Numbered from the stretch's first letter, positions 10,881 through 58,552 are shown. The stretch: 64,000 bases of DNA from Thermoplasmata archaeon (GCA_003560595.1 PWKY01000066.1:226-64225); one strand, 5' to 3'. Made by a program: numbers and translations. The notes: a model not told the origin generated them from the letters alone.

Positions 10881-13484
10881 CTATTTCATTTTTGATTCTA
10901 TATGATCGATGACCTGGTGTATCTCACACGGTTGCACAACGATCAGATCTCCTTCTTTTGCCATCTCAAATCCGGCTTCTATGGCTTCTATCTCATCGAT
11001 TATCACCGTTACGCGATCTTCCGATAAACCAGCTTCTAAAACACCTTGTTTTACCAACTCCGCAGTTTCTCCGATGTTACGATACCTGGGGTCTGCATCG
11101 TTTATGATCACACGGTCGTATATCTTCCCGATACCCCTTCCAAAGTCGATGATATCTTCCGTCGGGCGGTTCCCAGTTCCCGAACATATAGTTATCTTTT
11201 CATTATCTGTTAGCTCATCCAATATCTTTGATATAGCTTCGACAGCGGGTCTGTTGTGTCCGTAGTCTATCATGACTTTGATCTTACCAACATCCATTAT
11301 GTTCATCCTTCCAGGATTTTGGTTGGTAGATGACTGGAAGGTCAAAAGCCCGCTTTTGATAGATTCGATGTCTATATCAAGGGCAAAGCATGAGGCAACT
11401 GCGGCTAATGAGTTCTGCAAGTTGAAGGCAGCTTTACCCTTAAATGCTATGGGTATATTAGCCACCTCGACCACCTTCCAAACGCTCTCACCTTTCTTTA
11501 TAACTATCCTATCGTCATCGACGGTTACAACTATACCGCCTTCGGAAAGATGTTCTTTTACTTCATTCATATCTGGGTCTAGTGAAAATAGTATGGTGTC
11601 CGCGTGAACGATATCTTTGTATCTGAACACATTGGGGTCCTCAGCATTGAGCACGGCTTTACCTGAAGCTTTAACGGTTTCCACCACGATACCCTTGAGG
11701 CGAGCCATGTCCCTTATGGTATTGATGCGCCCCTCACCCATGTGGTCCTTTGTGACGTTCAGGAACACGCCCACATCGCTCTCGTAATATCCTAACCCCC
11801 TTCTTAATATACCTCCTCGTGCCACCTCTAACACCGCATGATCAACGGTCTTTTCTTTTAGAACAAATTTTGCCCCCTGTGGTCCGCTAAAATCCCCCTC
11901 TTTCAATAGATGATCGCCTCTAAACAAACCGTCAGTACATGCGACGCCTACGTTTTTACCACTCAACATCAAGATATGGGCTATCAATCTGACTGTGGTG
12001 GTTTTTCCGTTGGTCCCTGTCACTGCCACTATCGGCACTCTACTCTTTGCTCCTGGTGGAAAGAGCATATCTAACACATACTTGGCAACGTTCCTCCGCT
12101 TCCCCTCATATGGATCCAAATGCATCCGAAATCCAGGTGCTGCGTTCACCTCTATTACCCCTCCATCACCATGCTTTATCGGTTGTTTCATGTCCTGAAC
12201 GATCAGATCGATACCCATAACATCCAAACCGATTATATCGGCGATCCTTTCAGCTAACACCTTATTATTTGGATGTAACGAATCGGTCACATCGGTAGCG
12301 GTCCCCCCCGAGCTTAGATTTGCGGTTGATTTCAGTAACAACTCTTCTCCTTCGGGAAGAACTGTGTCTAAAGTATGGTTATTCTGTTTGAGGATCCTTT
12401 TTGTCATGTAATCTATTTCGATCTTAGTAAGTGTTTTCTCGTGACCTACCCCTCTTCTTGGGTCGCTGTTCAATACCTCTATCAGTTCTTTTATAGATGA
12501 TCTACCATCACCCCTTATGAATGGAGGATCTCTTCTAGCTGCAGCAACAAGCTCTCCATCTATCACCAGCATCCTGTGATCGGCTCCTTTCAAATATTCT
12601 TCGATGACTACATTGGGATCGATCTTTTTAGCTATCTTAAAAGCGAGTTTTAATTCCTCACTATCCTCCACCCTTGAGGAGATCCCTCGTCCATGGTTAC
12701 CTATATTCGGTTTTACAGCTACTGGATAACCTGATCTCTTTGCCATGCTTAAAGCCTCCTCTATAGTTTTGACCGTCCCCCCTCGGGGAACGGGTATGCC
12801 CGCTTCTTCAAGGATATCTTTCGTATTTTTCTTATCATCGGCGATCTCAACGGCGATGGCGGAAGTGTTCTCGGTCATACTGGCTTGCACCCTCTTTTGA
12901 TAAGAACCATGGCCCAGCTGGACGTAGCTGTGCTGGTTCAGCCTTATATAAGGTATACCCCTGCGGTATGCTTCACTTACTATGGATTTTGTAGTAGGCC
13001 CAAGCATATTCTGGTCCCGAAGGTACTTCAATTTTTTTAATACCTCTTCGATATCCGGTTCCTCCCCCTTCGTCAAGGCTTTAACTACTCTTACTGCTTC
13101 TTTACCTGCTTCGATGCCGGCGTCTTCATCTCTGTACCTGAAAGCTATTTCGTATATCCCATGTTGGTCAGTAGACATAGTTTTTCCGAAACCTACATCC
13201 ATGTTGGCTAGGCACTGCAGTTCTATGGCCACATGTTCAACTATATGTCCTAACCATGTACCCAATTCCACTCGTTCCAAGAAACCTCCTTCGTATCCCC
13301 GGCTACAGCGATGGGCTTTCAATGAGGGTAAGAGTGATTTCAAGCGTTCTACGAAGCCTGGTATCTCATCAGATGGTCTATCTTCGAATTCTTCGATATC
13401 TAAAAGCATGTATACCACCTGATATCGACTAAAGTAATTTGGCCCTCTGAGGGCTCTGATCTCTTGGATCTCTATGATTATCAC
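10881..13484 (-). CDS. cphA: Cyanophycin synthetase (ATP-grasp + Mur-ligase domains)
   Basis: 867 aa. N-terminal IQEIRALRGPNYFS and FLERVELGTWLGHIVEHVAIELQ, an ATP-grasp core, then the Mur-ligase P-loop AVTGTNGKTTTVRLIAHIL. Collinear with bacterial CphA. Confidence 0.85.
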   Translation of the reverse strand: MIIIEIQEIRALRGPNYFSRYQVVYMLLDIEEFEDRPSDEIPGFVERLKSLLPSLKAHRCSRGYEGGFLERVELGTWLGHIVEHVAIELQCLANMDVGFGKTMSTDQHGIYEIAFRYRDEDAGIEAGKEAVRVVKALTKGEEPDIEEVLKKLKYLRDQNMLGPTTKSIVSEAYRRGIPYIRLNQHSYVQLGHGSYQKRVQASMTENTSAIAVEIADDKKNTKDILEEAGIPVPRGGTVKTIEEALSMAKRSGYPVAVKPNIGNHGRGISSRVEDSEELKLAFKIAKKIDPNVVIEEYLKGADHRMLVIDGELVAAARRDPPFIRGDGRSSIKELIEVLNSDPRRGVGHEKTLTKIEIDYMTKRILKQNNHTLDTVLPEGEELLLKSTANLSSGGTATDVTDSLHPNNKVLAERIADIIGLDVMGIDLIVQDMKQPIKHGDGGVIEVNAAPGFRMHLDPYEGKRRNVAKYVLDMLFPPGAKSRVPIVAVTGTNGKTTTVRLIAHILMLSGKNVGVACTDGLFRGDHLLKEGDFSGPQGAKFVLKEKTVDHAVLEVARGGILRRGLGYYESDVGVFLNVTKDHMGEGRINTIRDMARLKGIVVETVKASGKAVLNAEDPNVFRYKDIVHADTILFSLDPDMNEVKEHLSEGGIVVTVDDDRIVIKKGESVWKVVEVANIPIAFKGKAAFNLQNSLAAVASCFALDIDIESIKSGLLTFQSSTNQNPGRMNIMDVGKIKVMIDYGHNRPAVEAISKILDELTDNEKITICSGTGNRPTEDIIDFGRGIGKIYDRVIINDADPRYRNIGETAELVKQGVLEAGLSEDRVTVIIDEIEAIEAGFEMAKEGDLIVVQPCEIHQVIDHIESKMK

Positions 13485-20766: not shown

Positions 20767-21511
20767 ATTACCATTTGATAGAACGATATTGTACCTCCCA
20801 GCTGATCTTGAACATCTAGACGGCGACGAGATGCTGGAATTCACCGAAGAGTACACCGGTTTACCGGTAGAATTACGGGATGATTTCTTCCATGAATATT
20901 ACCGTGAGGACCTACCTAGAAGATCGGCTCAGACCAGGGTCAGGGATCTTACCGAAAGGAGGTTCATCGAACCCCTTCCGGTGGAGGTCGATCTTGAAGA
21001 GAAGATAATACATGGAAGGAACGTCCGGGGTATTATCTACGACGGGCGGAGGTTAACAAAGATGATACGGGAGTATATAGCTCCGGCGAAGGGCCATCAT
21101 GTGGTCATCACCGATAGAGCGGTGGGTACTATGGAGGAGCACGATGCCCGCTATCATATTCGAACGCTTATCTGTTCGATCCCTTCTCTTATCTCCACTT
21201 CCGGTATCGTAGAAGGTCCGGCGAAACCGAGGGAGTATTACACCGGCTTGAAGTCGGATCTCGGATTCGAGCCCATGAAGTACGGAGACACTCGTATGAC
21301 GGATGCGGTGAAGTCATACATCCTTCAATCTCTCGCATGGAGGATCACCGGGGAGCCCTTTTGTGAGGATAAAGGGTGCCGTCTTTACAATTCTCACTGG
21401 CAGAAAGAAGTGGTCGAGTATCAGCTGAAAGGTGAGCTGTGTGACGAAGACATGAAATTATTTCGAGAGTTCCAAAATTTTATGTATTCAAAGGATGATG
21501 CGAGGATATGA
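20750..21511 (+). CDS. Conserved hypothetical protein between thi4 and the ThiF-like E1
   Basis: 253-aa ORF whose boundaries overlap thi4 and the downstream E1 gene (ATGA coupling); Cys-containing C-terminal region. Confidence 0.4.
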
Positions 21512-22497
21512 CAAGGTATTCTCGCCAAACCGTGCTGCCCGAGATCGGGGACGAAGGCCAGAAACGTTTGAGCGAGAGCCGGGTAGCTATAATAGGACTA
21601 GGCGGGCTGGGTTCGGTGATGGCGGAAGGGTTGGCGAGAGCCGGTGTGGGTTATCTTAGAGTGGTGGACAGGGATGTGCTGGAATTATCCAACCTTCAGC
21701 GCCAGGCACTTTATGGCGAAGGAGATATCGGGAAAGCCAAAGCCGAGTTGGTAAAAGAGAAGATAGGCCGGATCAACTCCGAGGTTAGTGTTGGATCTCA
21801 CGTGGTCGAGGTAGGTTCGAAAAATATTGAAAAACTCATAGATGGTGCAGATATAGTATTAGATGCCACGGACAACATGAAAACCCGTTTCATACTCAAC
21901 GATGCCTGTGTGAAACACGGGATACCTTGGATTTATACTTCTATCTTAGGCACCTACGGTATGACCATGGATGTTGTACCCGGAAAAGGCCCCTGCTTAC
22001 GCTGCTTGCTCGTGAAGATGCCGGAACCCGGGAGTATGGAGACCTGTGCCACCGCCGGTGTGCTTTTTTCTTTACCACGGATCATGGCGAACATAGCCGC
22101 CACCGAGGCAGTGAAATATTTAATCGGGGCGGATACGAGAAATACTTTACTGACGATAGATATTTGGAAGAACGATTACGAACAGATCCAAGTGACTCAA
22201 AGAGAAGACTGTGGATGCTGCGCTAAAAAGGATTTCGAATATCTGCAAAAAGAAGACGATCTCACCACTTCCATGTGCGGTAGAGAAGCGGTACAGGTGA
22301 CACCCGAGGAGAGAGTTGAGGTCGATCTAGACAAGTTCGTTAAAAAGTACGGCGGAAAGATGGTAGGGAGATCATTGGCAAAGTTTGAAATGGATGCTTA
22401 CACACTCACACTCTTCAAAGACGGAAGGCTTATCGTCGAGGGGACTGAAGATCCTAAAAAGGCGATAAGTATTTACTCGGAGTACATAGGTAGATGA
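21508..22497 (+). CDS. ThiF/MoeB/HesA-family E1-like adenylyltransferase with an additional C-terminal domain of about 80 aa
   Basis: YSRQ start, nucleotide-binding IIGLGGLGS motif and two CxxC pairs (CLRCLL, CGCCAKK). Confidence 0.8.
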   Translation: MTRYSRQTVLPEIGDEGQKRLSESRVAIIGLGGLGSVMAEGLARAGVGYLRVVDRDVLELSNLQRQALYGEGDIGKAKAELVKEKIGRINSEVSVGSHVVEVGSKNIEKLIDGADIVLDATDNMKTRFILNDACVKHGIPWIYTSILGTYGMTMDVVPGKGPCLRCLLVKMPEPGSMETCATAGVLFSLPRIMANIAATEAVKYLIGADTRNTLLTIDIWKNDYEQIQVTQREDCGCCAKKDFEYLQKEDDLTTSMCGREAVQVTPEERVEVDLDKFVKKYGGKMVGRSLAKFEMDAYTLTLFKDGRLIVEGTEDPKKAISIYSEYIGR

Positions 22498-43856: not shown

Positions 43857-44153
43857 CTATAAAAAATTATCCGTTAGACCCCTTTTCAATAAGCTCTGAT
43901 GAGTCATCATCTTCACGTTTTCTCCCCCTTCGACACCTAGCCTTTTCATGTCACCTTCTCTCAGTTTTATATATCCGTTCTCGATCAGAGGATCTGAAAA
44001 AATATTCACCAGGATGTCCCTTCTCTCAGAGCGTATCACAGCGAGATCTCGATCATCTAAACCTAGTTCTCTCATGATCTTTGTATTAACCCTAGCCGTT
44101 CCTTGTATTTTTACTAGACTAGGTTCAACTATCAGGTCTACACTCTTAGGCAT
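43857..44153 (-). CDS. Stand-alone Cdc48/VAT N-terminal-like double-psi beta-barrel domain protein
   Basis: G.ARV..KIMRELGL..D.AVI....R..LV (psi-loop pattern matching VAT-N), 98 aa. Confidence 0.5.
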   Translation of the reverse strand: MPKSVDLIVEPSLVKIQGTARVNTKIMRELGLDDRDLAVIRSERRDILVNIFSDPLIENGYIKLREGDMKRLGVEGGENVKMMTHQSLLKRGLTDNFL

Positions 44154-44181: not shown

Positions 44182-44868
44182 TCAAATTTTTCCCTCTTTA
44201 ATCATCTTTATCCTTCGAGAAGCATCGATACATTCTCGATGATCAAGGGTGTTATCGAATTCTGGGTTTTCTAATAGATAAACTAATTCATTTATCAGTT
44301 TAGATATCCCATGAGAAAAACTCCAGCTAGACAGGTATTCACAATGTATATCTCCTCCACGCTCCGGCGGCGCGATGTTTGGATGGTATATCTGTGACTG
44401 CCATTTTACTCTGGGAGCCACATAAGGATAGGCCCTTGCTAATGACAAAGATAATTTATGTTTAAAGGAGTTGGCGATCATATCTCCGATCAAAACAGGA
44501 CCGGGTATGTTTTTTAATGTAACCTCTACATCGAATCTATTTTCGGAAGAGTCACAGGAAACGCTGTATCCATCGTTTTTTAAAGACTTGACCTCGTTTA
44601 AAATCCTCTGTTCCCAAATCTCTTCTGGAAGTCTGTTTGGATCGTCAGATGGTCTGAGTATCAGTACTTCTCCATGGTCAAAAGATACATTTGACCAGGT
44701 CATATGAGTCGAGATCATTTCACCATCAAGTTCAAATACGTGTGGTTCATGCAATTCCCAGTAAGAACTTACGTCTGAAAGTGTTTTAGAAACTTTATCT
44801 TGGGGCGAAACGGATACACTAACCCTGTCCCCTGTGCCCTCTTTTAAGATCGATAATACCTTACTCAT
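44182..44868 (-). CDS. Ubiquitin-conjugating enzyme E2-like protein (UBC fold with HPN motif and catalytic Cys) with an N-terminal extension of about 80 aa
   Basis: QIYHPNIAPPERGGDIHCEYLSSWSFSHGISKLINELVYLLENPEFDNTL aligns block by block with eukaryotic UBC (KIYHPNI..GSICLDIL..WSP..ISKVLLSI.SLL.DPNPDDPL). The upstream helix-1 and beta-meander regions are also collinear. Confidence 0.75.
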   Translation of the reverse strand: MSKVLSILKEGTGDRVSVSVSPQDKVSKTLSDVSSYWELHEPHVFELDGEMISTHMTWSNVSFDHGEVLILRPSDDPNRLPEEIWEQRILNEVKSLKNDGYSVSCDSSENRFDVEVTLKNIPGPVLIGDMIANSFKHKLSLSLARAYPYVAPRVKWQSQIYHPNIAPPERGGDIHCEYLSSWSFSHGISKLINELVYLLENPEFDNTLDHRECIDASRRIKMIKEGKI

Positions 44869-45029: not shown

Positions 45030-48000
45030 TTGTCAGGTAAATACCTCAAAGCGAGGCAACTCGCAAAAGAGATGGAAAAGCTCGCAAAAAAGACTGCCGA
45101 GGATAAGAAGGAAGCCTTAGATAATCTAGAGAAGGCCGAAGAACTACTAGATGATTCAAAGGAGCTGGGGGCAGATGTTGAGGGGGCTGAAGAACTCATA
45201 GATGAAGCCCGGGAACACTTCGAAGAAAAGGAATTAGAAAAGACGATCGAAAAGGTAGAAAAAGGGTTGGAAATAATTCGTGAAGCCAATAGTAAGAGGG
45301 TCACCGATCTGATGAAAGGTACCGAAGAACTTCATGAAATGATCGCAGAGGAAGATAGATACAAAGAGTCTCTAGAACTCCTTGATCAGGCTAAGGAGGC
45401 GATGGAGGATGATGATTTTAAAGGTGCCATGGAAAAGGCAAAAGAATCTTTGGACCTAGCTCTGCTCGAGATACAAGAAAAACTGACTGATGAATTCGCC
45501 ACCTTGGATTCAATGGTCATCTCTCTTGAAGATAAAGGGGAAGATCCAGAAGAGATCGAAACCAAGGTGCAGGAAGCTAGAGATGCCATGGAACAAGATG
45601 ATTTCCAGACCGCCGTATCACTGGTTAATGAATGCAAAGAATTACTGCATAAGGACTTGAAGGCATTGGTCGAGGAAGAGATAAATAAAGTGAAGAAGCA
45701 GGAGGAGATGATAAGAGAGGGTGGAGGAACAACTGTAGATATCGAAGAGATGATAAGCAAAGCTAGAAACCGTATCAAGGATGGTCACTTTGAAAGTGCC
45801 GTAGAATTCGTCGATGACGCAAAAAATGAATTGAACGAGGCCATGGAAGCTGTAGTTGAAAAGGTGGAAGGCGATATCGAAGGATCACTCAATGAAGCTA
45901 AAGAGATCGAATGTGACATAAGCAAGATAGACGAGATGAGAGAAAGGCTCGTCGACTTAAAATATGAAGGTAAATACAGCGAAGCTTATGAACATATCCA
46001 GAAAATAATTGACAAGCTCGAGGAATTAAAATTCCAAAGAGTGTTAAAGACCATCGCGGAGTCCAGAGACCATTTTATCAAGGGCAAAGAGATAGGGATA
46101 GACATATCTGAACCCATGGGTCTTTTGAATAAGGCGAGGACCTCTCTAAAGGAAGGGGATCATAAAGGAGCATTGGATTGGGCAAATGCCGGGAGACAGA
46201 AGGTAAGGGAGCTTGTGGAGGAACACGAACGCATCGAGATGCGTATAGCCGAAGCCAAGAGAGTAAAGCAGGACCTTGTTGATATAGGCATAGAGCTAAC
46301 CGAAGCAACCAGTATAATATCAGCATCTGAGGAGGCCCTAGGAAAAAAGGATTACGGCGCAGCCGAAGAAAAGCTGGAAGAATTCGACGGATATATCGAT
46401 AAAAATGCCTATGAAGAGATAATGAAACTGGTAGAAGATCTAGAGGTCAAATTAAATATCGCAGAAGATATGGATCTAGATGTTGCTGAGTACACTGAAA
46501 GTTTGGAAGTGGCCATCGCAAATACTAAATCAGCCGAGTATGCAAAGGCTGGTAAGATAACCTTAGATACTTTAGAAGAACTGAATGATCTGATAGAAGA
46601 AGCACTGGATAAACGTATAAAAAACATGAGAGAACTCGTACAAAAGACACAGCAAGAGATGACTGAGGAAGAGGACCTGGAAGAGTTGGAGAAAGTAGAG
46701 GGATTAGTAGAGGAAGTAGAGAGTGCGTTCGATGAAAGCGATTATCGCAAAGCTCACGATTGTTTAAAGAACGTATCTTCCGAGATCAAAAGATGGAGGG
46801 TTGGAGAGGCGGAAGAAAGATATACACGTGTCAAGGAACTGGTCGGTTTGGTCAAAGAACTCGAGATTGAAAATATAGATGAGGATGCGTATGAAGAAAG
46901 GCTTGAGAAAGTCACTGAGGCATTCGACGATGACGATTATACCAACGTTGTAAAGCTCTCCGATGAGATGCTTGATAGTCTTAATAAAGAGTTCGAAAGC
47001 ACTGCTGAGGAAGTATTCTCCCGGGCCAAGATGGAGGCCGTTAAAGCAAAGAAGGCCGGGGTCGATATCGAAGATCTAAGAAGCAGACTGATCGACTGTA
47101 AGAAACTCATACGAAATCAGGACTTTACCTTAGCGATAAGGAATTCCTTGAAGGTCGAAGAGGACGCTAAAAGGATGACGAAAAAAAGAAAATCCAGTTA
47201 CGATCTTATATCCTCTTTATCTACAACTTTAACCAAGCTCAGAAAGAAGGGAGAGATCGAAGATATAACTCCTGCTAAGGAATTATTACTTAAAGCAAAG
47301 ACCAGTTTCCAGGATAAAGATTATACTCAAGCTGAAAATTTGGCACTACAGGCTAAAGAAAAGATAGGCGAACTCACAGCAAAGAGCGAATTCGAATCGA
47401 AACTCAGGAAGCTTCGGGAAAACCTAGAGGAAGCCAATGCTCTTGGTATCGACACTACAGATATAGAACTTGATCTAGATGAAGTAACCTCAATTATGAA
47501 AGAAGGAGATATCGAAGAAGCTGTGGAGGGTATAAGAGAGGCTCAGGAGAATATAAAGGAAAAGATGAGTGATTTTGTAAAACCTGAGATCGAACGCACC
47601 CGTGACATAATCAACTCTGCTAACAACATCGGTGTTGACGTATCTACTCCTGAAGCCATACTTGAAGAGGTCGAGAGTTTATGGGAAGCTGGTGACTTCT
47701 CAAAAGCTTTGACCGAGATAGAAGAATGTAAACGAGAGATCGAGGGCATCAAGAACAAAAGCAAACGTGCAGCAAGTGGTGTAAAACGTGTAAAAGATAG
47801 GATATCAAAGGCCAAGGATCTTAATGCGGATGTTAAAGAACCGGAAAAATACATGAATCAAGCTATAAAAGCACTGAAGGAAGACAGGTATGAAGATTCA
47901 ATCAAATTCACAAAAAAGGCAGAGGAGAGTGTTGAAGAGGCTGAGATGGTTAGGGTTTACAGCATACTGGAAACCTTCAATAAGAAAATAGCAGAAGTAA

Positions 48001-49394
48001 GAAAGGAAGGAGTGAACACCGCCTTCGCAGATAACCTGATGAAGCGTGCTGAAAAAGCCATGGATGCAGGTAAATACCACGAAGCGATCAACTTGGCTAT
48101 GCAGAGTGAAGGGGAGGTAGAGAGGATAGAACTGCAGAAGGATATCGCAAAAAGGAGTATCTCTACAACTCAAAAGAAGATCGAGGATGCCAAGGAAGAA
48201 GGCATAAAGGTAGGCGACGCAAAAAAACTATTAGACCAGGCAAAACAAGCATACAAAGGTGGCTTTTACGTAAAGGCATTCGATAACGCAGTTAAAAGCG
48301 GAGACGACGTCAACCATGTACTCAAAGCACATCAGGAGGTATCAGAAAGATTAGAGTCACTGCCCAAACTGATAGATGCCATGGATGGGCTTGAAGTAGG
48401 GGAAAAAGAATTACAAAAACGATTTGAAGACATCAAACGTTCTATGAGTAGAGGAAGGTACACCAAGGCTTTAGAAACCATCAAAGAAAACGAGAAAAGT
48501 TTGGAAGAAGTCAAAGAGCGTTTACATGATAAAATAGATGAAATCGAAAAAACTGTAAATAATTATCAGGATCAGGGAAAAGAAGTGGGGTCCGCATCTG
48601 AGTTACTTCAAAACGCAAAAGGGAACGTAGATATGGGTGAGTTGATCGAAGCGTGTAACCAGATACAAAGTGCTAAAAAGGAGTTCGGAGGAGATGCTGT
48701 AGAAGGGTATCAAAAATATATCGGCGAGGCTAAAGAATTGATACAGATGGCTAAGAAGTTCGGAGCATCCATCACAGATGCTCAAGGGCTGATCAAGGAG
48801 GCCACTTCTTTGGAAGGGGAAGATATATCTGGTGCTAGAGATAAGGCCCACGAAGCACTAGAGTGCATAGAAAAGTCTTTAGAACCCTACAGTCCCAATA
48901 TATCCTTATCTTCAAAAGCCAAGCTTCAGAAGGGAGATTGGAATACTATCAAAGTCGAATTTAAAAATACTGGTAGAGGGGTCGCGAAAAGTCCCGAGCT
49001 ATCCGTGTCAGGCGGCGAATTGAAAAAAGTTGATCTACCAGCCATGCTCAAGGCCGATGAGGAATTGGAATTAGAAATTAAGTTGAAACCCATCGATGAA
49101 GTAGTTACTCTTACCGCTTTGGGAACTCGAATATTCGACCAAAAAGAACTGACCGATGAAGAAGAGATCGAAGTTGTTGAAAAGTTGTACGGATTTGTAG
49201 AGGCGGAGGGAGGAGAGCACTGCAATATATGCGGTGGTACGATAAAAGAAGGGTTAGAGATAATCCGATGTAGTTGTGGAGAAACCATTCATAAACCGTG
49301 TGGGGAAAGGGAAGGTAAATGCCCGAACTGCGGGGTAGAATTGAAGGAAAAGAAAAAGAAGAAGGCATCTAAACGGGTGGCTTTGAAGATATGA
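45030..49394 (+). CDS. Giant (1454 aa) acidic helical-repeat protein: about 18 tandem TPR/MIT-like helical-hairpin units separated by coiled coil, with a C-terminal C4HC3 RING/PHD-like zinc finger and a poly-Lys tail
   Basis: Recurrent [LI]G[IVA]D[IV]s..e.ll..A.......GD[FY]..A......A unit about every 35-40 residues. C-terminus HCNICGGTIKEGLEIIRCSCGETIHKPCGEREGKCPNCG. TTG start in the track; first in-frame ATG at 45072. Confidence 0.6.
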   Translation: MSGKYLKARQLAKEMEKLAKKTAEDKKEALDNLEKAEELLDDSKELGADVEGAEELIDEAREHFEEKELEKTIEKVEKGLEIIREANSKRVTDLMKGTEELHEMIAEEDRYKESLELLDQAKEAMEDDDFKGAMEKAKESLDLALLEIQEKLTDEFATLDSMVISLEDKGEDPEEIETKVQEARDAMEQDDFQTAVSLVNECKELLHKDLKALVEEEINKVKKQEEMIREGGGTTVDIEEMISKARNRIKDGHFESAVEFVDDAKNELNEAMEAVVEKVEGDIEGSLNEAKEIECDISKIDEMRERLVDLKYEGKYSEAYEHIQKIIDKLEELKFQRVLKTIAESRDHFIKGKEIGIDISEPMGLLNKARTSLKEGDHKGALDWANAGRQKVRELVEEHERIEMRIAEAKRVKQDLVDIGIELTEATSIISASEEALGKKDYGAAEEKLEEFDGYIDKNAYEEIMKLVEDLEVKLNIAEDMDLDVAEYTESLEVAIANTKSAEYAKAGKITLDTLEELNDLIEEALDKRIKNMRELVQKTQQEMTEEEDLEELEKVEGLVEEVESAFDESDYRKAHDCLKNVSSEIKRWRVGEAEERYTRVKELVGLVKELEIENIDEDAYEERLEKVTEAFDDDDYTNVVKLSDEMLDSLNKEFESTAEEVFSRAKMEAVKAKKAGVDIEDLRSRLIDCKKLIRNQDFTLAIRNSLKVEEDAKRMTKKRKSSYDLISSLSTTLTKLRKKGEIEDITPAKELLLKAKTSFQDKDYTQAENLALQAKEKIGELTAKSEFESKLRKLRENLEEANALGIDTTDIELDLDEVTSIMKEGDIEEAVEGIREAQENIKEKMSDFVKPEIERTRDIINSANNIGVDVSTPEAILEEVESLWEAGDFSKALTEIEECKREIEGIKNKSKRAASGVKRVKDRISKAKDLNADVKEPEKYMNQAIKALKEDRYEDSIKFTKKAEESVEEAEMVRVYSILETFNKKIAEVRKEGVNTAFADNLMKRAEKAMDAGKYHEAINLAMQSEGEVERIELQKDIAKRSISTTQKKIEDAKEEGIKVGDAKKLLDQAKQAYKGGFYVKAFDNAVKSGDDVNHVLKAHQEVSERLESLPKLIDAMDGLEVGEKELQKRFEDIKRSMSRGRYTKALETIKENEKSLEEVKERLHDKIDEIEKTVNNYQDQGKEVGSASELLQNAKGNVDMGELIEACNQIQSAKKEFGGDAVEGYQKYIGEAKELIQMAKKFGASITDAQGLIKEATSLEGEDISGARDKAHEALECIEKSLEPYSPNISLSSKAKLQKGDWNTIKVEFKNTGRGVAKSPELSVSGGELKKVDLPAMLKADEELELEIKLKPIDEVVTLTALGTRIFDQKELTDEEEIEVVEKLYGFVEAEGGEHCNICGGTIKEGLEIIRCSCGETIHKPCGEREGKCPNCGVELKEKKKKKASKRVALKI

Positions 49395-52455: not shown

Positions 52456-52911
52456 TTGATGAAGCAGTGTCCCTCATGTTCCCGGATGGTCGAAGAGTTT
52501 TCTGATCGATGTCCAACCTGTGGTATGGTCATGATGCCTTCTAAAGAACCAAGCAAGTATCCTGAGGTAGCCGGTGTTTTGATGGTGGTGGCAGCTTTGA
52601 TCGCTATCTTATTTGCCATCTCTGCGATCATGGGTTTAGGTGAGGTGGTCGAACAGGTTCAGCCCGAGCTGCCCGAAGAATTGGATACGGATTTTTTTGA
52701 AACGATACTCAACGCCTGCTTTGTTCTTATCTCCGTATTTGGTGTAGTCCTTTTAGTTGGAGGTTTTCTAGCCTATAATCGAAAGAGCTGGCTAATGGTC
52801 ATGGTATGCGCGATAATAGGAATATTTTCCATAGGTTTTTTCTTGATCTCATCTGTTTTATCTATAGTAGCTCTGATATTAATCGTTATGAGTAAGGATG
52901 AATTTCAATGA
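52456..52911 (+). CDS. Membrane protein with N-terminal CPxC-x12-CPxCG zinc ribbon (first of three consecutive zinc-ribbon paralogs)
   Basis: CPSCSRMVEEFSDRCPTCG followed by three hydrophobic helices. Confidence 0.55.
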   Translation: MMKQCPSCSRMVEEFSDRCPTCGMVMMPSKEPSKYPEVAGVLMVVAALIAILFAISAIMGLGEVVEQVQPELPEELDTDFFETILNACFVLISVFGVVLLVGGFLAYNRKSWLMVMVCAIIGIFSIGFFLISSVLSIVALILIVMSKDEFQ

Positions 52912-52972
52912 AGAGCAAAAGTTATAAAACCCTCATTCTTTATCCCAAACGCAGAAGAAAAGGTGAGTTATT

Positions 52973-53830
52973 TTGGTAGAACAAGGTGAAATAAAATGTC
53001 CAGTATGCGACTCTTTGTTAGATAAAGACAGCAGGAATTGTCCTTCATGTGGGTTGACTCGCAGCCTTATCGACATGGAAAAAAATATGGATGAGGACCC
53101 AGTTCTAGATCTTATGGGAGATATAATCGATGATATAACCGATGATAGATTAAAGGAGAGTGAAGATGAGATCTTTAATATTGTGAAGAAATTGAACAAC
53201 TCTAAAGAATTAAATGGTGATGAGACCGTAGAAGTGACTGGTGATGAGACCGTAGAAGTGACTGGTGATGAGACCGTAGAATTGACCGGTGATGAGACCG
53301 TAGAAGTGACTGGTGATGAGACCGTAGAATTGACCGGTGATGAGACCGTAGAAGAAGTGGTGATCTTTGAGTGCCCAATTTGTTCTGCAGAGGTGGAGGA
53401 AACCGATTCTGAATGTCCAGGGTGTGGGGCTATATTTGAAGACGATGAAGAAGACATCGAGGAGTTATTGGATGAAGAGTTATCTAACGCAAGGAACGGT
53501 CTGGTAGAGATCAGGGATCTACCGATTTCTCCGGATGCTTTGAAGGACTTGGTAAAGCAGTCGGTGACGATGAAAAAGGAAGGGGACCTAGAAAGAGCCT
53601 TAGAGAAGGCTGTTGAAGCGAACGACTTACGCCATAAGTTAGAAGAATTCGTTAACATACTTTCAGATTCCAAAAAGATGCTGAAAAAGATGAAAGAGAA
53701 TGGAATGGATTATATGGGTCACATGAAAGATTTAAAGGACTCAAAAAATATGGTAGAACTCGGAGACGTACATGGTGGACTGGAATCTTCACGGCAAACA
53801 TATACCGAAATATTAAAAAAAATTGGTTGA
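52973..53830 (+). CDS. Zinc-ribbon / acidic-repeat / coiled-coil protein (paralog of the next gene)
   Basis: CPVCDSLLDKDSRNCPSCG, then 6x GDETVEVT repeats, a second ribbon CPICSAEVEETDSECPGCG, then one helical repeat unit and a coiled coil. TTG start. Confidence 0.6.
   Translation: MVEQGEIKCPVCDSLLDKDSRNCPSCGLTRSLIDMEKNMDEDPVLDLMGDIIDDITDDRLKESEDEIFNIVKKLNNSKELNGDETVEVTGDETVEVTGDETVELTGDETVEVTGDETVELTGDETVEEVVIFECPICSAEVEETDSECPGCGAIFEDDEEDIEELLDEELSNARNGLVEIRDLPISPDALKDLVKQSVTMKKEGDLERALEKAVEANDLRHKLEEFVNILSDSKKMLKKMKENGMDYMGHMKDLKDSKNMVELGDVHGGLESSRQTYTEILKKIG
53215..53360 (+). repeat. 24-bp tandem repeat x6 (GGTGATGAGACCGTAGAAGTGACT), coding for GDETVE[VL]T
   Basis: Read directly; the variants differ only by gtg/ttg. 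Confidence 0.9.
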
Positions 53831-54130
53831 TGGGGAGAATATTATTCCACCGCATTTATAGCATCAGCTATCACGATAGGATCTCTCTATATCACTCCTT
53901 TACTATGGGGTTCAAGCCAGATATCCATTTTGTTTCTGGCTTTGGCTGTTGTATTGTTCATACTCGTATTGATATCTCCATTGATATTGATCTTATCATA
54001 CCTATCTTCATTGGCGACACACCGTTTCTTGAAGGATACGTCACCGTCAACACAGCTGACAGACCTTTAAAATTGGTAATAGAACCAAAATCTAAATACA
54101 GGGCTTTTACTTAATCTATGCCGTACAGAG

Positions 54131-56734
54131 GTGCAGAAACTGAGCGAAAACAAGGGTATCATCTGCCCAGTATGCAAAACCGAGATACCGGATGAGTTGG
54201 AGGAGTGCCCTAGCTGTGGCCTTGATAAGATACTCATCGAGCTTGAAGAGGGAGAGGATAACGATGAATACGTCGAGAACTTAGAGAAACTATTAGCCGA
54301 CGAACTAGACGACGATCTTTTGGATCTGGAGGATGATCTAGATGAGTTAGACTTGGACGATCTAGATGATGAATCACTGGACGATATATTGGGATTAGAA
54401 GAGTCAGACGATATATCGGAATTAGAAGAGTCAGACGATATATCGGAATTAGAAGAGTCAGACGATATATCGGGATTAGAGGAGTCAGACGATATATCGG
54501 AATTAGAAGAGTCAGACGATATATCGGGATTAGAAGAGTCAGACGATATATCGGAATTAGAAGAGTCAGACGATATATCGGAATTAGAAGAGTCAGACGA
54601 TATATCGGAATTAGAAGAGTCAGACGATATATCGGAATTAGAGGAGTCAGCTGATATATCGGAATTAGAAGAGTCAGTTGATATATCGGAATTAGAAGAG
54701 TCAGCTGATATATCGGGATTAGAAGAGTCAGACGATATATCGGAATTAGAGGAGGAGGTAGAGCAAGACGATCTTCTGTTGGGATTAGAGGATGAGGTGG
54801 AAGATATATCCGAAGAAGAGCTTCTGAAGGAGCTAGAGGAAGAACTTGAGGTATCGGATGAAGTGGTGTACGAATGTCCAACATGCGGTCACCATTTAAA
54901 GGAAGAGGACAAAAAGTGTTCTTCCTGCGGAACGGTTTTTGAAGACTCAGAAGAAGAACTTGAAGATGAGCTCAGTCTGTTAGAACAAACCCTTGAGGAT
55001 CTAGCTGAAGATGAGTTGGAACCGACCTCGGAAGATGAGCAGGAAGTTATAGAGATAATGGAGGAGATCCAACGATTCATAAAAGATCTGGAAGAAGAAC
55101 CGATAAAATTAGATGTGGTACGCCAGCTTTATGAACAAGTTGAAGGGGAAAAAGCGAAGGGCAACATCGAATCAGCCTCACGTCTCGGATTGGAAGCCTT
55201 AAAAGTATGCGAGAACATGGAGCGCTTTTTGGATAGGAGCCGAACACTGAAAAAAGAGCTTACCTTTTTCAAAAAAGTAGGTCTGAACTACGATCATTAT
55301 GTAAGTGAACTGAACTCCGCTAGAAGGTCTGTCGAATCAGGTCTTACCAAGAAGGGATTGGAACGGGTAGATAAGTTGATCGAGAAAGCGGAGTCAAAGA
55401 AAAACAACTATGAGAAATTACACGATACCAAGCAAAACATCAACGATGTGGTATCTAACCTAAATCAGATATTGAGCTCCGCTAAATCTTTGAAGATGCC
55501 TTTGGAATCAGAAAGGGAGTTGATTTCAAATGCTCTAGTGGCCTCCAAAGACGGTGATGTACAAAAGGCCTTAGATTGGCTATTAAAAGCTAGAGAACGC
55601 TCTATAGATAAGATAGAGGATACCATATCTCAGAATATACGGGATTTTGAAGAGAAGGTCCACGAGTTGAGAGCAGATAATAGAGATAAATTAGAAGATA
55701 TGTTGATGAAAGTTAGAGATGCTAAGGTCGAAGGGAACTATATCCGAGCGGGTAAACTTATAGGCCGAGTGAATAAGTTGGTTGAAGGGACATTAAAGGA
55801 AGATAACGGGGAACTAGACGCTTTAAAAGACTTGATCGATGCTGCGGTATCCATCGGCGTAGATACAACCGCGTGCATTGAACACTATCAAAAGGCGATC
55901 GATTCCATGGACCCTAGAAGAAGAAAGATACACATCAACAACGCCAAGAGACATCTCACGAAACGGTTACCACCTAAATTACAGTCAGCCATGAAAGAAT
56001 CCTTGATAAAGCTAGAGAAGGCGCGAGAAAATGAAAAAAACATCTCCAAGCCGGTGACCTATTTAAAACAGGCCAACCTGAACGTCAAGAAAAAAAATTA
56101 CCTTAAAGCCTTGGAGTACATCAAGGTATTCAACGATAAAATACGGCCGATGCTGGAAGAAGAGGAAGAAAAAGAAGAGGTAAAGGAAGCCGGCGTATTA
56201 CGCATACAAAAGAAATTGAAGAAAGAACCAAAACCCACTAAAACCATCGATCTAAAAAAGACCAAAACCATCCCGAGGGATCTGATGAAAGGTTCAACAT
56301 ACCTTTTTACCGAAACAGACCCAGTTGAAGCCTTTAAGATGGCCAAAAAAAAGGTCGATGAAGGTATAAGAGGTATCTGCGTTACCAGACAGTACCCTGA
56401 TAAGGTGAAATCAAGATATAATATGAGGGATGTCAGAATAATATGGTTATCGAATATAGACCAAGCCGATGCGATCAAACCTAAGGCATTGGATGATCTG
56501 AGCTTGGAGATGGAGGATTTCCTAAAAGATGAAGGTGGATTGATACTGCTTGATGGGTTGGAATATTTGATATCAAATAACGACTTCAAAATTGTATTCC
56601 ATGTTATACAATCTATCAAAGACCAAGTTGCCATCTCCGATTCCATACTTATACTTACATTAACGCCGGATACACTGGAAAAACACCAGATAAGCCTTTT
56701 GGAAAAAGAAGTCGATGAAACCTATCATCTTTAA
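54131..56734 (+). CDS. Zinc-ribbon / LEESDDISE-repeat / coiled-coil protein with a C-terminal DUF835-like domain (867 aa)
   Basis: ICPVCKTEIPDELEECPSCG, 13x 9-aa acidic repeats, a second ribbon ECPTCGHHLKEEDKKCSSCG, helical repeats of the giant-protein type, and a C-terminal GSTYLFTE..GICVTRQYP..IIWLSN..LLDGLEYLISNNDF..ILILTLTPDTL block. GTG start. Confidence 0.6.
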   Translation: MQKLSENKGIICPVCKTEIPDELEECPSCGLDKILIELEEGEDNDEYVENLEKLLADELDDDLLDLEDDLDELDLDDLDDESLDDILGLEESDDISELEESDDISELEESDDISGLEESDDISELEESDDISGLEESDDISELEESDDISELEESDDISELEESDDISELEESADISELEESVDISELEESADISGLEESDDISELEEEVEQDDLLLGLEDEVEDISEEELLKELEEELEVSDEVVYECPTCGHHLKEEDKKCSSCGTVFEDSEEELEDELSLLEQTLEDLAEDELEPTSEDEQEVIEIMEEIQRFIKDLEEEPIKLDVVRQLYEQVEGEKAKGNIESASRLGLEALKVCENMERFLDRSRTLKKELTFFKKVGLNYDHYVSELNSARRSVESGLTKKGLERVDKLIEKAESKKNNYEKLHDTKQNINDVVSNLNQILSSAKSLKMPLESERELISNALVASKDGDVQKALDWLLKARERSIDKIEDTISQNIRDFEEKVHELRADNRDKLEDMLMKVRDAKVEGNYIRAGKLIGRVNKLVEGTLKEDNGELDALKDLIDAAVSIGVDTTACIEHYQKAIDSMDPRRRKIHINNAKRHLTKRLPPKLQSAMKESLIKLEKARENEKNISKPVTYLKQANLNVKKKNYLKALEYIKVFNDKIRPMLEEEEEKEEVKEAGVLRIQKKLKKEPKPTKTIDLKKTKTIPRDLMKGSTYLFTETDPVEAFKMAKKKVDEGIRGICVTRQYPDKVKSRYNMRDVRIIWLSNIDQADAIKPKALDDLSLEMEDFLKDEGGLILLDGLEYLISNNDFKIVFHVIQSIKDQVAISDSILILTLTPDTLEKHQISLLEKEVDETYHL
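54392..54750 (+). repeat. 27-bp tandem repeat x13 (ATTAGAAGAGTCAGACGATATATCGGA with minor variants), coding for LEESDDIS[EG]
   Basis: Read directly; the variants are gac to gct/gtt and gaa to gga. Confidence 0.9.
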
Positions 56735-56890: not shown

Positions 56891-58552
56891 TCAATAACTA
56901 CCTCTTCTAACTATAATGCTCAGAAGCCAAATACCCATCAACACTGAGACCAAAAATATGTAGGGACCGAACATCACCTGCTCACCCGACATGACCACAA
57001 GTGCAGAGCCGATGATTATCGCCGCTGTAATGATGGTATAACTCAACCTGTTAGAGATAGTTTCCAACCGCATCTCCAATTCTTTTAAACCCTTGTGTTC
57101 TATGGACACTGCAAAGTCACGCTCCTCGAACCTTTCAAGCACGTCGTTGATCTTAGTTGGTAAATTTGAGATCAATCTTTTGTAGTCCTTAGCGCTGCTG
57201 TAAATGGATTTGAGCTGGGCTTTAGGGCCGTACCTCATCTTGATTATATCGACGATAACAGGTTCAGCGGACTGGAAGAAATCGAATTTTGGGTCCAGTG
57301 CGTTACAGATACCCTCGATCTCTATCAACGCCCTTTCCATGAGTAGGAAATTAGCTGGTAGAGATATATTGTGCTTATTAACGATCATCATTATCTCTTC
57401 ATTTGCACCTTCCTTGAACATGACGTCTTCTTTGCGTTTGTAGAGTTCCAATATATCTTCGATATCCCACTCCAGCTCTTGTGGATCATAATCTCCGTGC
57501 TGTACGCTTATATCTATGAGTACATCCTTAACTCTGATGGTATCCCCCTTGGCCATCGCTATGAATAAATCTATCAGTTTATTACGGCGTTCATGGTTCA
57601 ACCTACCCACCGCTCCGAAGTCTAGGAACACTATCTTACCTTCCTCACAGAAGAACACGTTCCCCGGTGACGGGTCGGCGTGGAAGATACCGTGTATAAA
57701 GAACTGGCGAAGCATCGCCTGTGCCAATTCACTAGCCAGCTTTTGTTTGAACTCGACTGGATAGTCACCGTCCATGGCCTGTCTGATGCTTTTTCCCTTC
57801 ACATTCTCAAGCACCAGTACTTTTTGAGTAACGTACTTCCAATACACCTTAGGTATTATGATATCAGGATCATCCTCAAAGGCTTCGTAAAATCTTTGAG
57901 CGTTCCTTGCTTCTATGGTATAGTTCAATTCCTTCTCTAACATCTTTTTGAATTCGTAAACCGTGTCTTGGGGGTGATACATCTCACTTTCAGGTACCCA
58001 TTTCTCGATAAGCTCAGCCACCTTTTTTATCAAAGCCATGTCCGCTCGAACACGCTCCCTTATGTTCGGACGCTGTACCTTTACAACGACTTCTTCACCG
58101 GTTTTCAAGGTCGCTTCGTGTACCTGGCCTATGGATGCCGAACCGAGTGGTGTGTTGTAAAACTCGTCGAACAATTCTGATATCGGTGCCCCGAGTTCTT
58201 CTTCTATTATCTCCCTTGCATCTTCAGCAGGGTAAGGGCTCACGTGTTCGTAGAGCTTTCTTAACTCGTTGGCGAACTCCAATGGTACAAGGTCTGGACG
58301 GAGTGCCAAAAATTGTCCCAATTTGATGAACGTAGGTCCTAGATCTTCCAGTAACTTACGCATCTGGGGTGCGTCGACAGTCTCCATCTGCTCTTCTAAC
58401 TGATCTTCCATCCTAGACCTGGAAACAAAGCTGATCAGTCCCAATTCTTTTATGAAATCAACTAGACCATGCTTAAGCAATACCTCGACAATCTCCCTTA
58501 TACGATCTATCTTACTCGTTTTCTTCATCTTCAAAAAGAATATTGTCAACAT
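56891..58552 (-). CDS. ubiB: UbiB/ABC1-family atypical protein kinase with C-terminal TM helices
   Basis: ABC1 kinase-like blocks (ASIGQVH, the HADPSPGN catalytic loop, DFG). Confidence 0.8.
   Translation of the reverse strand: MLTIFFLKMKKTSKIDRIREIVEVLLKHGLVDFIKELGLISFVSRSRMEDQLEEQMETVDAPQMRKLLEDLGPTFIKLGQFLALRPDLVPLEFANELRKLYEHVSPYPAEDAREIIEEELGAPISELFDEFYNTPLGSASIGQVHEATLKTGEEVVVKVQRPNIRERVRADMALIKKVAELIEKWVPESEMYHPQDTVYEFKKMLEKELNYTIEARNAQRFYEAFEDDPDIIIPKVYWKYVTQKVLVLENVKGKSIRQAMDGDYPVEFKQKLASELAQAMLRQFFIHGIFHADPSPGNVFFCEEGKIVFLDFGAVGRLNHERRNKLIDLFIAMAKGDTIRVKDVLIDISVQHGDYDPQELEWDIEDILELYKRKEDVMFKEGANEEIMMIVNKHNISLPANFLLMERALIEIEGICNALDPKFDFFQSAEPVIVDIIKMRYGPKAQLKSIYSSAKDYKRLISNLPTKINDVLERFEERDFAVSIEHKGLKELEMRLETISNRLSYTIITAAIIIGSALVVMSGEQVMFGPYIFLVSVLMGIWLLSIIVRRGSY

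Follow-up and report, generated by a model that had tools for sequence, protein, structure and literature searches.

Three neighbouring genes with an N-terminal Cys4 ribbon

The window analysed here, a 64 kb stretch of DNA taken as a whole, contains three consecutive open reading frames whose products have 151, 285 and 867 residues, as well as the gene of a giant 1454-residue protein (Table 1). An earlier note on this DNA had described the three as paralogues opening with the same zinc ribbon. All three ORFs are present, and the five ribbon strings that it quoted lie where it placed them and nowhere else in the 64 kb. In a six-frame scan of the whole window the pattern CPxC-x8-20-C[PS]xCG occurs five times, always inside these ORFs and always as a CPxC-x12-14-C(P/S)xCG knuckle; none of 100 shuffled sequences contained it. 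Ribbon 1 of the 867-residue protein keeps all four Cys in 14 of 14 loci examined, at identities down to ~29%, so these are not chance cysteine pairs. Ribbon 2 of the same protein passes the gathering scores of zinc-ribbon Pfam families (30.6 against 27 and 28.2 against 25; PF13248, PF13240 and PF12773 were tested), ribbon 1 of the 285-residue product is borderline (26.8 against a cut-off of 27), and AF2 models of both products show the ribbons as beta-hairpin knuckles. The CxxC knuckle pattern is that of generic zinc-ribbon domains (Zn_ribbon_3, Zn_Ribbon_1, DZR), Pfam families that are uninformative on function. Here, in contrast, the ribbon is fixed at the extreme N-terminus and followed by a conserved hydrophobic-acidic motif, of the GLDRIIIELEE type in the 867-residue product, where ribbon and motif are both kept in all 14 loci.

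Table 1. Features of the locus, in positions of the window
Feature	Position	Strand	Details or evidence
Giant 1454-aa protein	45030-49394	+	~20 units of ~62 aa, Ig-like beta domain, C-terminal RING-like finger
151-aa putative membrane protein	52456-52911	+	N-terminal Cys4 ribbon, then three hydrophobic stretches
Ribbon, 151-aa product	52468-52524	+	
285-aa apparent truncated paralogue (head only)	52973-53830	+	TTG start after AAGGTGA-N6
Ribbon 1, 285-aa product	52997-53053	+	
Acidic disordered region, 285-aa gene	53215-53354		24-nt x 5.8 repeats, unit TGDETVEV
Ribbon 2, 285-aa product	53372-53428	+	
Two helical repeat units, 285-aa gene	~53444-53827		
867-aa initiation region (probable)	54128-54145	+	Shine-Dalgarno GAGGTG 54128-54133, 6-nt spacer, CTG 54143-54145
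867-aa ribbon-rod-DUF835 protein	54131-56734	+	Pfam, repeats, AF2, fold matches
Ribbon 1, 867-aa product	54164-54220	+	
Acidic disordered region, 867-aa gene	54380-54754		27-nt x 13.9 repeats (copy number from the assembled MAG, may be imprecise), unit SDDISELEE
Ribbon 2, 867-aa product	54875-54931	+	
Helical rod, 867-aa product	55031-56167		residues 301-679
Lys-rich disordered linker, 867-aa product			residues 680-715
DUF835 / inactivated KaiC-like domain (predicted), 867-aa product	56336-56710		residues 736-860
ABC1/UbiB-type atypical kinase gene	56891-58552	-	Pfam ABC1, E 5e-77

The proposed paralogy holds for the 285- and 867-residue products, which are related by BLASTP (E 2e-13); the shorter is collinear with the N-terminal ~425 residues of the 867-residue family, at ~30% identity. 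It does not extend to the 151-residue product, which has a generic 19-residue ribbon alone in common with the others. Its BLASTP alignment to the 285-residue product is limited to 22 residues, and its Pfam matches are weak (UPF0547/DZR, E ~0.01-0.03). The hydrophobic segments of this product are centred at residues 42-59, 88-100 and 119-140 (Kyte-Doolittle), codon 2 of the ORF is ATG, making ATG 52459 the likely start, and the gene is missing from every locus of an 867-residue orthologue compared. It appears to encode an unrelated ribbon-anchored membrane protein that has only the ribbon in common with its neighbours.

The acidic tandem repeats noted earlier between the ribbons are real and in frame in both the 285- and 867-residue genes, with 93-94% matching. 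Orthologues of the larger protein differ in the length of the acidic spacer and in the repeats within it, and the spacer has expanded independently in the two paralogues. Two antisense ORFs (52933-53673 and 54234-54884) were discounted as by-products of the tandem repeats.

The 285-residue product retains all eight Cys and both helical units, the latter at high AF2 model confidence, and matches positions 5-124 of the 867-family helical profile (E 1.4e-19). Among external sequences it comes closest to the N-termini of 867-residue orthologues (locus L006, E 5e-25). No other homologue was returned by a word-indexed search of 5.8e9 proteins, in which acidic repeats saturated the scored candidates, and a metagenome scan covering close relatives gave only a 31-residue ribbon-2 motif on unrelated contigs. 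The gene is missing from every orthologous locus compared. Judged from these matches, it is a genome-specific truncated paralogue consisting of the head and two helical units. The deposited annotation (P0009) has 247 residues and lacks ribbon 1.

Layout and start codon of the 867-residue protein

Read from its N-terminus, the 867-residue protein has ribbon 1, the disordered acidic repeats and ribbon 2, followed by a rigid rod of about six 62-residue helical units, a flexible basic linker and DUF835. The deposited AF2 models, built on shallow alignments of 7-8 sequences, give a pLDDT of ~90 for the rod and ~85 for DUF835, and values below 50 for residues 86-227. By inspection, no signal peptide or transmembrane segment is apparent in the 867- and 285-residue sequences.

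Two of the three genes had been assigned non-ATG starts. The TTG of the 285-residue gene stands, with its own AAGGTGA-N6 upstream, and the GTG of the 867-residue gene is probably wrong. This GTG (54131) falls within the Shine-Dalgarno hexamer GAGGTG; in at least seven loci the GTG is not in frame, or a stop codon comes after it, and an in-frame TAG lies immediately 5' in four. GAGGTG-N6/7-CTG is invariant in all 14 loci, implying a conserved CTG start, and the gene probably begins at CTG 54143. A TATA-like element is located ~35-40 nt upstream of the initiation region (~54089-54100). Within the window, GAGGTG-N6-CTG is unique to this gene, a single instance that rules it out as a general habit of the genome; any SD-like element was found for 13 of the 54 genes. 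No RNA genes or tRNAs were found in the window. GAGGTG-N6/7-CTG represents a rare, comparatively well-supported candidate for a conserved CTG initiation codon in archaea. Gene callers cut off the N-terminal ribbon in several deposited members (P0002, P0003, P0006-P0008 and P0009 are truncated), which hides the defining feature of the family from databases.

A 62-residue helical repeat shared with the giant protein

Each rod unit alternates a short helix of 15 residues with a long helix of 35-48 residues. The earlier note had proposed that the giant protein carries the same unit, and profile comparisons bear this out: the 867-family helical profile matches the giant in 8 stretches (E 3.6e-40) and, besides the giant and the 285-residue product, no other ORF in the window. 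In the reverse direction, a repeat HMM that finds 21 copies with a period of 62 in the giant scores 15.9 bits on the 867-residue rod, where none of 500 shuffles exceeded 8.5. It does not rise above shuffles on the 285-residue product, which is detected only by the 867-family profile. Among 1.84e9 representatives, giant-type proteins match the 867-family profile at E 1e-24 to 1e-35. An orthologue of the giant (P0066) and two distant members (P0032 and P0035) have the same architecture as the giant. These giants resemble the 867-residue protein in their repeat and their phylum (Thermoplasmatota), but have ~20 repeats, no N-terminal ribbons, and an Ig-like domain and RING-like finger in place of DUF835; the Prok-RING_1 match in the giant is weak (E 3e-4). 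Their genomic partners are an E2 in the window and scpA-scpB elsewhere.

Relatives of the helical module form at least 400 representative clusters in Thermoplasmatota, including Methanomassiliicoccales, and many are ribbon-headed without DUF835. A ribbon lies within the first 25 residues in 52 of the top 153. The ribbon-head and helical-repeat architecture is therefore Thermoplasmatota-wide, and not the lineage-specific expansion that had been suggested. Only the DUF835-tailed form appears to be restricted to halo(alkali)philic Thermoplasmata, and only the 285-residue copy to this genome. Word-indexed searches with the 867-residue product were swamped by acidic and Lys/Glu-rich words and yielded 4 and 7 proteins; an exhaustive profile search was used instead.

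The 62-residue unit matched no Pfam family, and sequence comparison did not retrieve DUF357. A 20-residue 'GDYxxA' motif can be aligned with consensus TPR proteins, with each stretch non-significant and a period of 62 against 34; no TPR Pfam match was obtained for the 867-residue product, the giant or single repeat units, and a TPR identity was rejected. A spectrin or EzrA-type identity was rejected as well. The spectrin-like rod of EzrA (PDB 4uy3) has ~106 residues per three-helix-bundle repeat, compared with 62 here, and the present proteins lack a membrane anchor. The helical repeat has no sequence match to EzrA or to DUF357/AF_1782 (PDB 2oo2), a small archaeal three-helix protein.

The C-terminal DUF835 domain

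The C-terminal domain had been called DUF835-like, and it matches PF05763 over residues 736-860 with 107.7 bits against a cut-off of 33.1 (E 5.2e-31), spanning profile positions 10-135 of 136. All orthologues have precomputed PF05763 assignments. Following the suggestion that this region be compared with KaiC-like folds, a structure comparison of the model matched the KaiC/ArlH-like fold, indicating a RecA/KaiC-like alpha/beta fold. The Walker A motif GxxxxGK[ST] is absent from all DUF835-tailed members (P0001-P0015), and the segment after strand 1 reads TETDPVEAFKMAKK in the 867-residue protein. ATP binding by the tail is thus not expected, and the domain appears to be an inactivated ATPase fold that is missing its P-loop. 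It has no sequence-level match to any solved KaiC or ArlH chain, with 14-17% identity to ArlH/FlaH and archaeal KaiC-like ATPases (PDB 4yds, 4wia and 2dr3), and NCBIfam ArlH gives 13 bits against a cut-off of 215 (E 0.046). Those ATPases are single-domain proteins, in contrast to the multidomain protein here, which lacks Walker A. The resemblance to active KaiC/ArlH ATPases is at the level of the fold only and does not extend to membership of their class.

In archaeal response regulators, DUF835 has been classed as an output domain of the 'inactivated KaiC' kind, with REC-DUF835 and REC-PAS-PAS-DUF835 architectures and Thermoplasmata among the reported hosts (Galperin et al., 2018; PMC5847659). 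The present protein resembles those in its C-terminal 125 residues and its fold without a P-loop. It differs in its N-terminal part, where a pair of Cys4 ribbons and a disordered acidic spacer are combined with a helical rod of 375 residues. This combination is not mentioned in that paper, the sole source naming DUF835 in the literature searched, in which no experiments on DUF835 proteins were found. The same DUF835 subfamily is also appended to an IleRS-like synthetase with HhH (L020 and L021, the latter adding a RING-like finger), which fits a docking or assembly module. As a C-terminal module on non-signalling proteins (rods and an aminoacyl-tRNA synthetase), DUF835 stands in a new context that points to a testable role in docking or assembly.

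Orthologues and gene neighbourhood

Full-length orthologues of the 867-residue protein occur in at least 13 Thermoplasmata MAGs from soda and salt lakes; three of them have lost ribbon 2. The ABC1/UbiB kinase gene is convergent (tail-to-tail) with the 867-residue gene in 13 of 14 loci, although other neighbours vary with the clade. One clade has an S26-like membrane protein together with a giant surface protein upstream; in another clade the upstream neighbour is an aldo-keto reductase/Fe-S protein. Synteny was explored as a source of operon or partner genes and gave only the convergent ABC1 gene as conserved; the clade-specific upstream neighbours look unrelated. No E2 or giant gene lies within 10 kb of an 867-residue orthologue in any other locus. 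The functional link to the E2 and giant locus that had been suspected has no support in synteny, and the shared repeats are the only connection.

Discussion

We tentatively favour a role for the 867-residue protein as a cytoplasmic elongated scaffold or adaptor in an archaeal KaiC-type network. Sequence, profiles and models predict a head in which a disordered acidic tether, variable in length, lies between two rubredoxin-type Cys4 knuckles. The head and its adjacent hydrophobic-acidic motif would capture a partner, the rod of about six 62-residue units would serve as a spacer or platform, and the dead KaiC-like domain would dock onto, or co-oligomerize with, a RecA/KaiC-type ring in KaiC-centred signalling. 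The conserved CTG start may keep the protein at low copy number, and the head-only 285-residue paralogue might either compete for this partner or form a bridge to it. Against a scaffold, no KaiC-like gene is linked to the locus, the sole conserved neighbour is a kinase without obvious connection, and ribbon 2 is dispensable.

It is somewhat unlikely that the three genes form no functional unit, being adjacent by accident and comprising, next to the larger gene, a decaying partial duplicate and an unrelated ribbon membrane protein. The absence of both smaller genes from every orthologous locus would agree with this, as would the generic ribbon of the 151-residue product, the lack of relatives of the 285-residue gene elsewhere in the protein database and metagenome scan, and the conserved promoter and Shine-Dalgarno sequence that the 867-residue gene has of its own. 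However, the 285-residue ORF is intact, has its own SD-N6-TTG start and has kept its Cys and helical units; in-frame repeats have expanded in it much as they have in the larger gene, and its identity to the larger protein is too low for a recent decaying copy.

We consider it clearly unlikely that the protein is a structural component of the nucleoid or chromosome, with ribbons that bind DNA and a rod family, including the giant RING protein, that works with condensin. Three helical-module relatives (P0018, P0023 and P0029) do carry HhH_5 DNA-binding domains and multiple ribbons, the rod geometry is EzrA-like, and at two loci, L038 and L039, scpA-scpB is followed immediately, in the same orientation, by a distant member of the giant family, with smc also called upstream in L038. 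Yet the proteins are extremely acidic, and their ribbons are minimal knuckles without a basic surface. Neither the annotated portion of the window nor the surroundings of any DUF835-tailed orthologue yielded SMC/Scp genes, and the linkage to condensin concerns two loci of the giant family, not the DUF835-tailed family.

A redox or metal sensor, in which the CPxCG knuckles act as Fe(Cys)4 sites of the rubredoxin kind, or as Zn sites that respond to redox state, and relay a signal through the rod to the KaiC-like domain, seems very improbable. In its favour, ribbon 2 with its flanks is weakly similar (E 2e-3) to rubrerythrin's rubredoxin domain, the hosts are archaea of anaerobic sediments, and two-component proteins use DUF835 for output (PMC5847659). 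Against it, the CPxC...CPxCG signature is common to hundreds of zinc ribbons, the Pfam assignments are to Zn_ribbon families, three orthologues have lost ribbon 2, and a 140-residue disordered spacer offers no long-range allosteric path. We give the least credence to a single Thermoplasmatota-specific intracellular scaffold, built from a new 62-residue spectrin-like repeat, that would unite the ribbon-headed rods with the giant rod-RING protein and with the HPN-Cys E2 encoded next to it. Such a scaffold would be tied to chromosome organization, in view of the smc-scpAB linkage seen elsewhere; the rods would co-assemble via their repeats, the DUF835 tail would connect them with KaiC-type signalling, and a ubiquitin-like step by E2 and RING would regulate the whole.

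The 285- and 867-residue products, rod proteins of salt-lake Thermoplasmata, appear to belong to a large, previously undescribed family. Their repeat is unannotated across its representative clusters; neither a Pfam model nor any literature on it was found. The repeat is combined again and again with ribbon, HhH, RING and DUF835 modules, which makes it a target for family building and for studies of archaeal intracellular organization.

Results

Three neighbouring genes encode products of 151, 285 and 867 residues. Both these ORFs and the five zinc ribbons that the earlier note had quoted from them were found in the sequence. When all six frames of the window were scanned for CPxC-x8-20-C[PS]xCG, exactly these five matches and no others came up, and the motif was absent from 100 shuffles of the window, so the clustering of the ribbons is far beyond chance. 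The two larger genes each carry an acidic tandem repeat, in frame and 93-94% matching at the DNA level, between ribbon 1 and ribbon 2, the Cys4 motifs that precede and follow it. As a whole the observation is confirmed, and its interpretation as a lineage-specific family of ribbon-headed scaffold or signalling proteins is supported in part.

Coordinates of features in the window and in related loci
Feature	Locus	Positions	Strand	Description
151-aa ORF	window	52456-52911	+	
285-aa ORF	window	52973-53830	+	
867-aa ORF	window	54131-56734	+	
Acidic tandem repeat, 285-aa gene	window	53215-53354		24 nt x 5.8, TGDETVEV (Tandem Repeats Finder)
Acidic tandem repeat, 867-aa gene	window	54380-54754		27 nt x 13.9, SDDISELEE (Tandem Repeats Finder)
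SD hexamer to CTG, 867-aa gene	window	54128-54145	+	comparison of 14 loci
ABC1/UbiB kinase gene	window	56891-58552	-	
CDC48_N-like ORF, 98 aa	window	43857-44153	-	comes after E2
E2-like gene	window	44182-44868	-	UQ_con E 7.6e-12, HPN motif, downstream Cys
Giant helical-repeat gene	window	45030-49394	+	C-terminal RING-like finger, Prok-RING_1 E 3e-4
IleRS-like + HhH + DUF835	L020	6584-10486		
IleRS-like + HhH + RING-like finger + DUF835	L021	6-2465		
Cyanophycin-synthetase-like ORF, 867 aa	window	10881-13484	-	Cyanophycin_syn N-domain E 1e-44, ATP-grasp, Mur ligase M + C
218-aa ORF	window	5080-5736	-	tubulin/FtsZ GTPase domain as sole match, E 6.5e-27

The three genes had been taken for paralogues, which holds for the 285-aa and 867-aa products and fails for the 151-aa product. 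By BLASTP the two larger products match with E values of 2e-13 over ribbon 2 and the first helical units and 9e-7 across ribbon 1. In alignment, the 285-aa product follows the N-terminal ~425 residues of the 867-aa family collinearly and stops after the second helical unit. The 151-aa product aligns with the other two over 22 residues, which are the ribbon only, and has three hydrophobic stretches outside it; it falls outside the family, as a generic ribbon-anchored membrane protein. Since the 285-aa gene matched only itself in a word-indexed search of 5.8 billion proteins (the scored candidates were saturated with acidic repeats), had no close relatives in a metagenome scan and finds its best external matches in the orthologue N-termini of other genomes (L006, E 5e-25), it is a diverged, truncated paralogue specific to this genome.

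In the AlphaFold2 model, residues 301-679 of the 867-aa product form a rod, with a pLDDT of about 90, in which short helices (~15 residues) take turns with long ones (35-48 residues), and residues 158-284 of the 285-aa model have the same pattern. An HMM of the giant, the 1454-aa helical-repeat protein, picks out a 49-residue core that recurs 21 times in it with a period of ~62 residues; against the rod it scores 15.9 bits, where the best of 500 shuffles reached 8.5, and the match is weak but real. The reverse test, a 375-position profile of the family's rod against the window ORFs, is decisive for the repeat shared by rod and giant. It matched just three ORFs: the 867-aa product itself, the giant (E 3.6e-40, eight stretches) and the 285-aa product (E 1.4e-19, profile positions 5-124). 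The helical unit proposed to be common to these products is therefore borne out.

Against 1.84 billion representative proteins, the rod profile found 400 relatives with E values of 1e-3 or below, 221 of them at 1e-10 or below. The best 153 include 13 with the DUF835 signature, at least 25 of the giant type with a C-terminal RING-like finger, and 52 that have a ribbon beginning in the first 25 residues and no DUF835, typically with an acidic spacer next and then a second ribbon or ribbon cluster. HhH_5 domains are present in some relatives; named ones are 'zinc ribbon domain-containing protein [Methanomassiliicoccales archaeon]' and 'hypothetical protein [Thermoplasmata archaeon]'. The range of the relatives and their ribbon heads show that the ribbon-head/rod architecture is old and phylum-wide. 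The helical-repeat family is large and covered by no Pfam model, and no literature on it was found.

Full-length orthologues of the 867-aa product (29-54% identity) occur in at least 13 species-level Thermoplasmata MAGs from soda-lake and hypersaline sediments (Kulunda B1Sed10, T1Sed10 and CSSed; Great Salt Lake), one of them Ca. Natronoplasma sp. Of the ribbon-headed forms, the DUF835-tailed one alone is restricted to the halophilic clade. Ribbon 1 and the GLDRIIIELEE-like motif after it are present in all orthologues; ribbon 2 is absent from three and displaced in one. An ABC1/UbiB kinase gene lies tail-to-tail with the 867-aa-type gene in 13 of 14 loci; in the distant clade just 13-24 nt separate the two genes. 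The upstream neighbours vary by clade, and all neighbours but ABC1/UbiB turn over. The 151-aa, 285-aa, E2 and giant genes are all missing within 10 kb of any orthologue. The suggested functional link to the E2/giant locus is not upheld, since neither gene of that locus lies near an orthologue and the shared repeats are its sole footing.

The gene start was compared in 14 loci (the window and L002, L004-L007, L009, L012, L015-L019 and L023 in other genomes). All 14 have, upstream of ribbon 1, GAGGTG, 6 or 7 variable bases and a CTG in the ribbon frame. The window's listed start is the GTG inside this hexamer. Six loci have this GTG out of frame, a seventh has TGA after it, and in four a TAG directly precedes it. 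In several loci, those with the TAG, no ATG, GTG or TTG occurs before the first cysteine. Spacer length differs between loci, so no conserved frame is possible upstream of the CTG. Downstream of it, the peptide LS[EDK]K[PE]EI is conserved and third-position changes are in excess (217 vs 136 and 118). The simplest reading would be an SD-led CTG start at 54143, conserved across loci; the start would be non-ATG as the earlier note had it, with CTG in place of its GTG. The 285-aa ORF is preceded by AAGGTGA-N6-TTG. In most loci a TATA-like box lies ~30 nt 5' of the SD, which indicates that the 867-aa gene is served by a promoter of its own. The ~300-nt gap that separates it from the 285-aa gene (53831-54127) has one non-conserved 95-aa ORF (53827-54114) and no Rfam or tRNA hit, and presumably houses this promoter.

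With a CTG start, the family's database proteins would be N-terminally truncated. For P0002, P0003 and P0006-P0008, gene callers begin at internal ATGs and the ribbon is lost; the 285-aa gene was deposited with a 247-aa annotation that likewise leaves out ribbon 1. Of the by-products of this analysis, the two that lend themselves most directly to testing are the conserved CTG start and the ribbon head's systematic mis-annotation.

The predicted DUF835-like domain at the C-terminus was recovered at residues 736-860 (PF05763, E 5.2e-31, 107.7 bits vs a cut-off of 33.1), with a pLDDT of about 85 in the AlphaFold2 model (eight family members). Walker A is absent from every DUF835-tailed member, and a sequence search with the domain recovered no solved KaiC/ArlH chain. 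DUF835 has been described as an 'inactivated KaiC' output domain of archaeal response regulators in Methanomicrobia and Thermoplasmata (PMC5847659), the only paper in the literature searched that names it. The Pfam, model and Walker A results match this label. Related domains of the same subfamily (45-50% identity to the window's) are C-terminal on IleRS-like class I aminoacyl-tRNA synthetases with HhH motifs in L020 and L021, which suggests a portable role for DUF835 as a module for docking or assembly. The RING-like finger between the synthetase/HhH part and DUF835 in L021 is 43% identical to the giant's.

Discussion

The ribbon-rod-DUF835 protein is a new architecture on a known, uncharacterised domain. 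Inspection of its sequence turned up no TM segment and no signal peptide, and it is apparently neither membrane-bound nor secreted. It is modular: a flexible acidic tether carries two Cys4 knuckles, and a stiff helical rod comes next, then a basic linker and a tail of KaiC/ArlH fold deficient in its nucleotide site. As a tentative reading, somewhat short of an even chance, the tail would dock onto, or assemble together with, a RecA/KaiC-type ring, the rod would act as a spacer or presenter and the ribbon head would bind a partner. The CTG start may hold abundance low, and the head-only 285-aa paralogue may modulate the same interaction as the 867-aa head.

The first alternative is that ribbon-rod proteins associate with the nucleoid or condensin. 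The rod has HhH-bearing relatives, and distant giant repeat/RING members are encoded immediately 3' of scpA-scpB, on the same strand, in two loci (P0035, L038 731-10491; P0032, L039 793-6873); in L038 an smc call lies upstream as well. This arrangement hints at a link between the giant repeat family and condensin. Alternatively, the ribbons may sense redox state or metals, as ribbon 2 resembles rubrerythrin's rubredoxin domain (E 2e-3). The last rival is that there is no functional unit whatever.

In the window, the E2-like gene, whose product has an N-terminal extension of ~80 residues, is divergently paired with the giant gene, and the two products may be an E2/E3 pair. The closest E1-like gene (ThiF, 21508-22497) lies 22 kb off and adjoins a DUF6775 metallopeptidase gene. 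A cyanophycin-synthetase architecture such as that encoded in the window is unusual in an archaeon; the listed GTG start of this ORF falls within TAGAGGTG sequence. The 218-aa ORF with the tubulin/FtsZ GTPase domain may come from a split FtsZ gene or from a call that was cut short.
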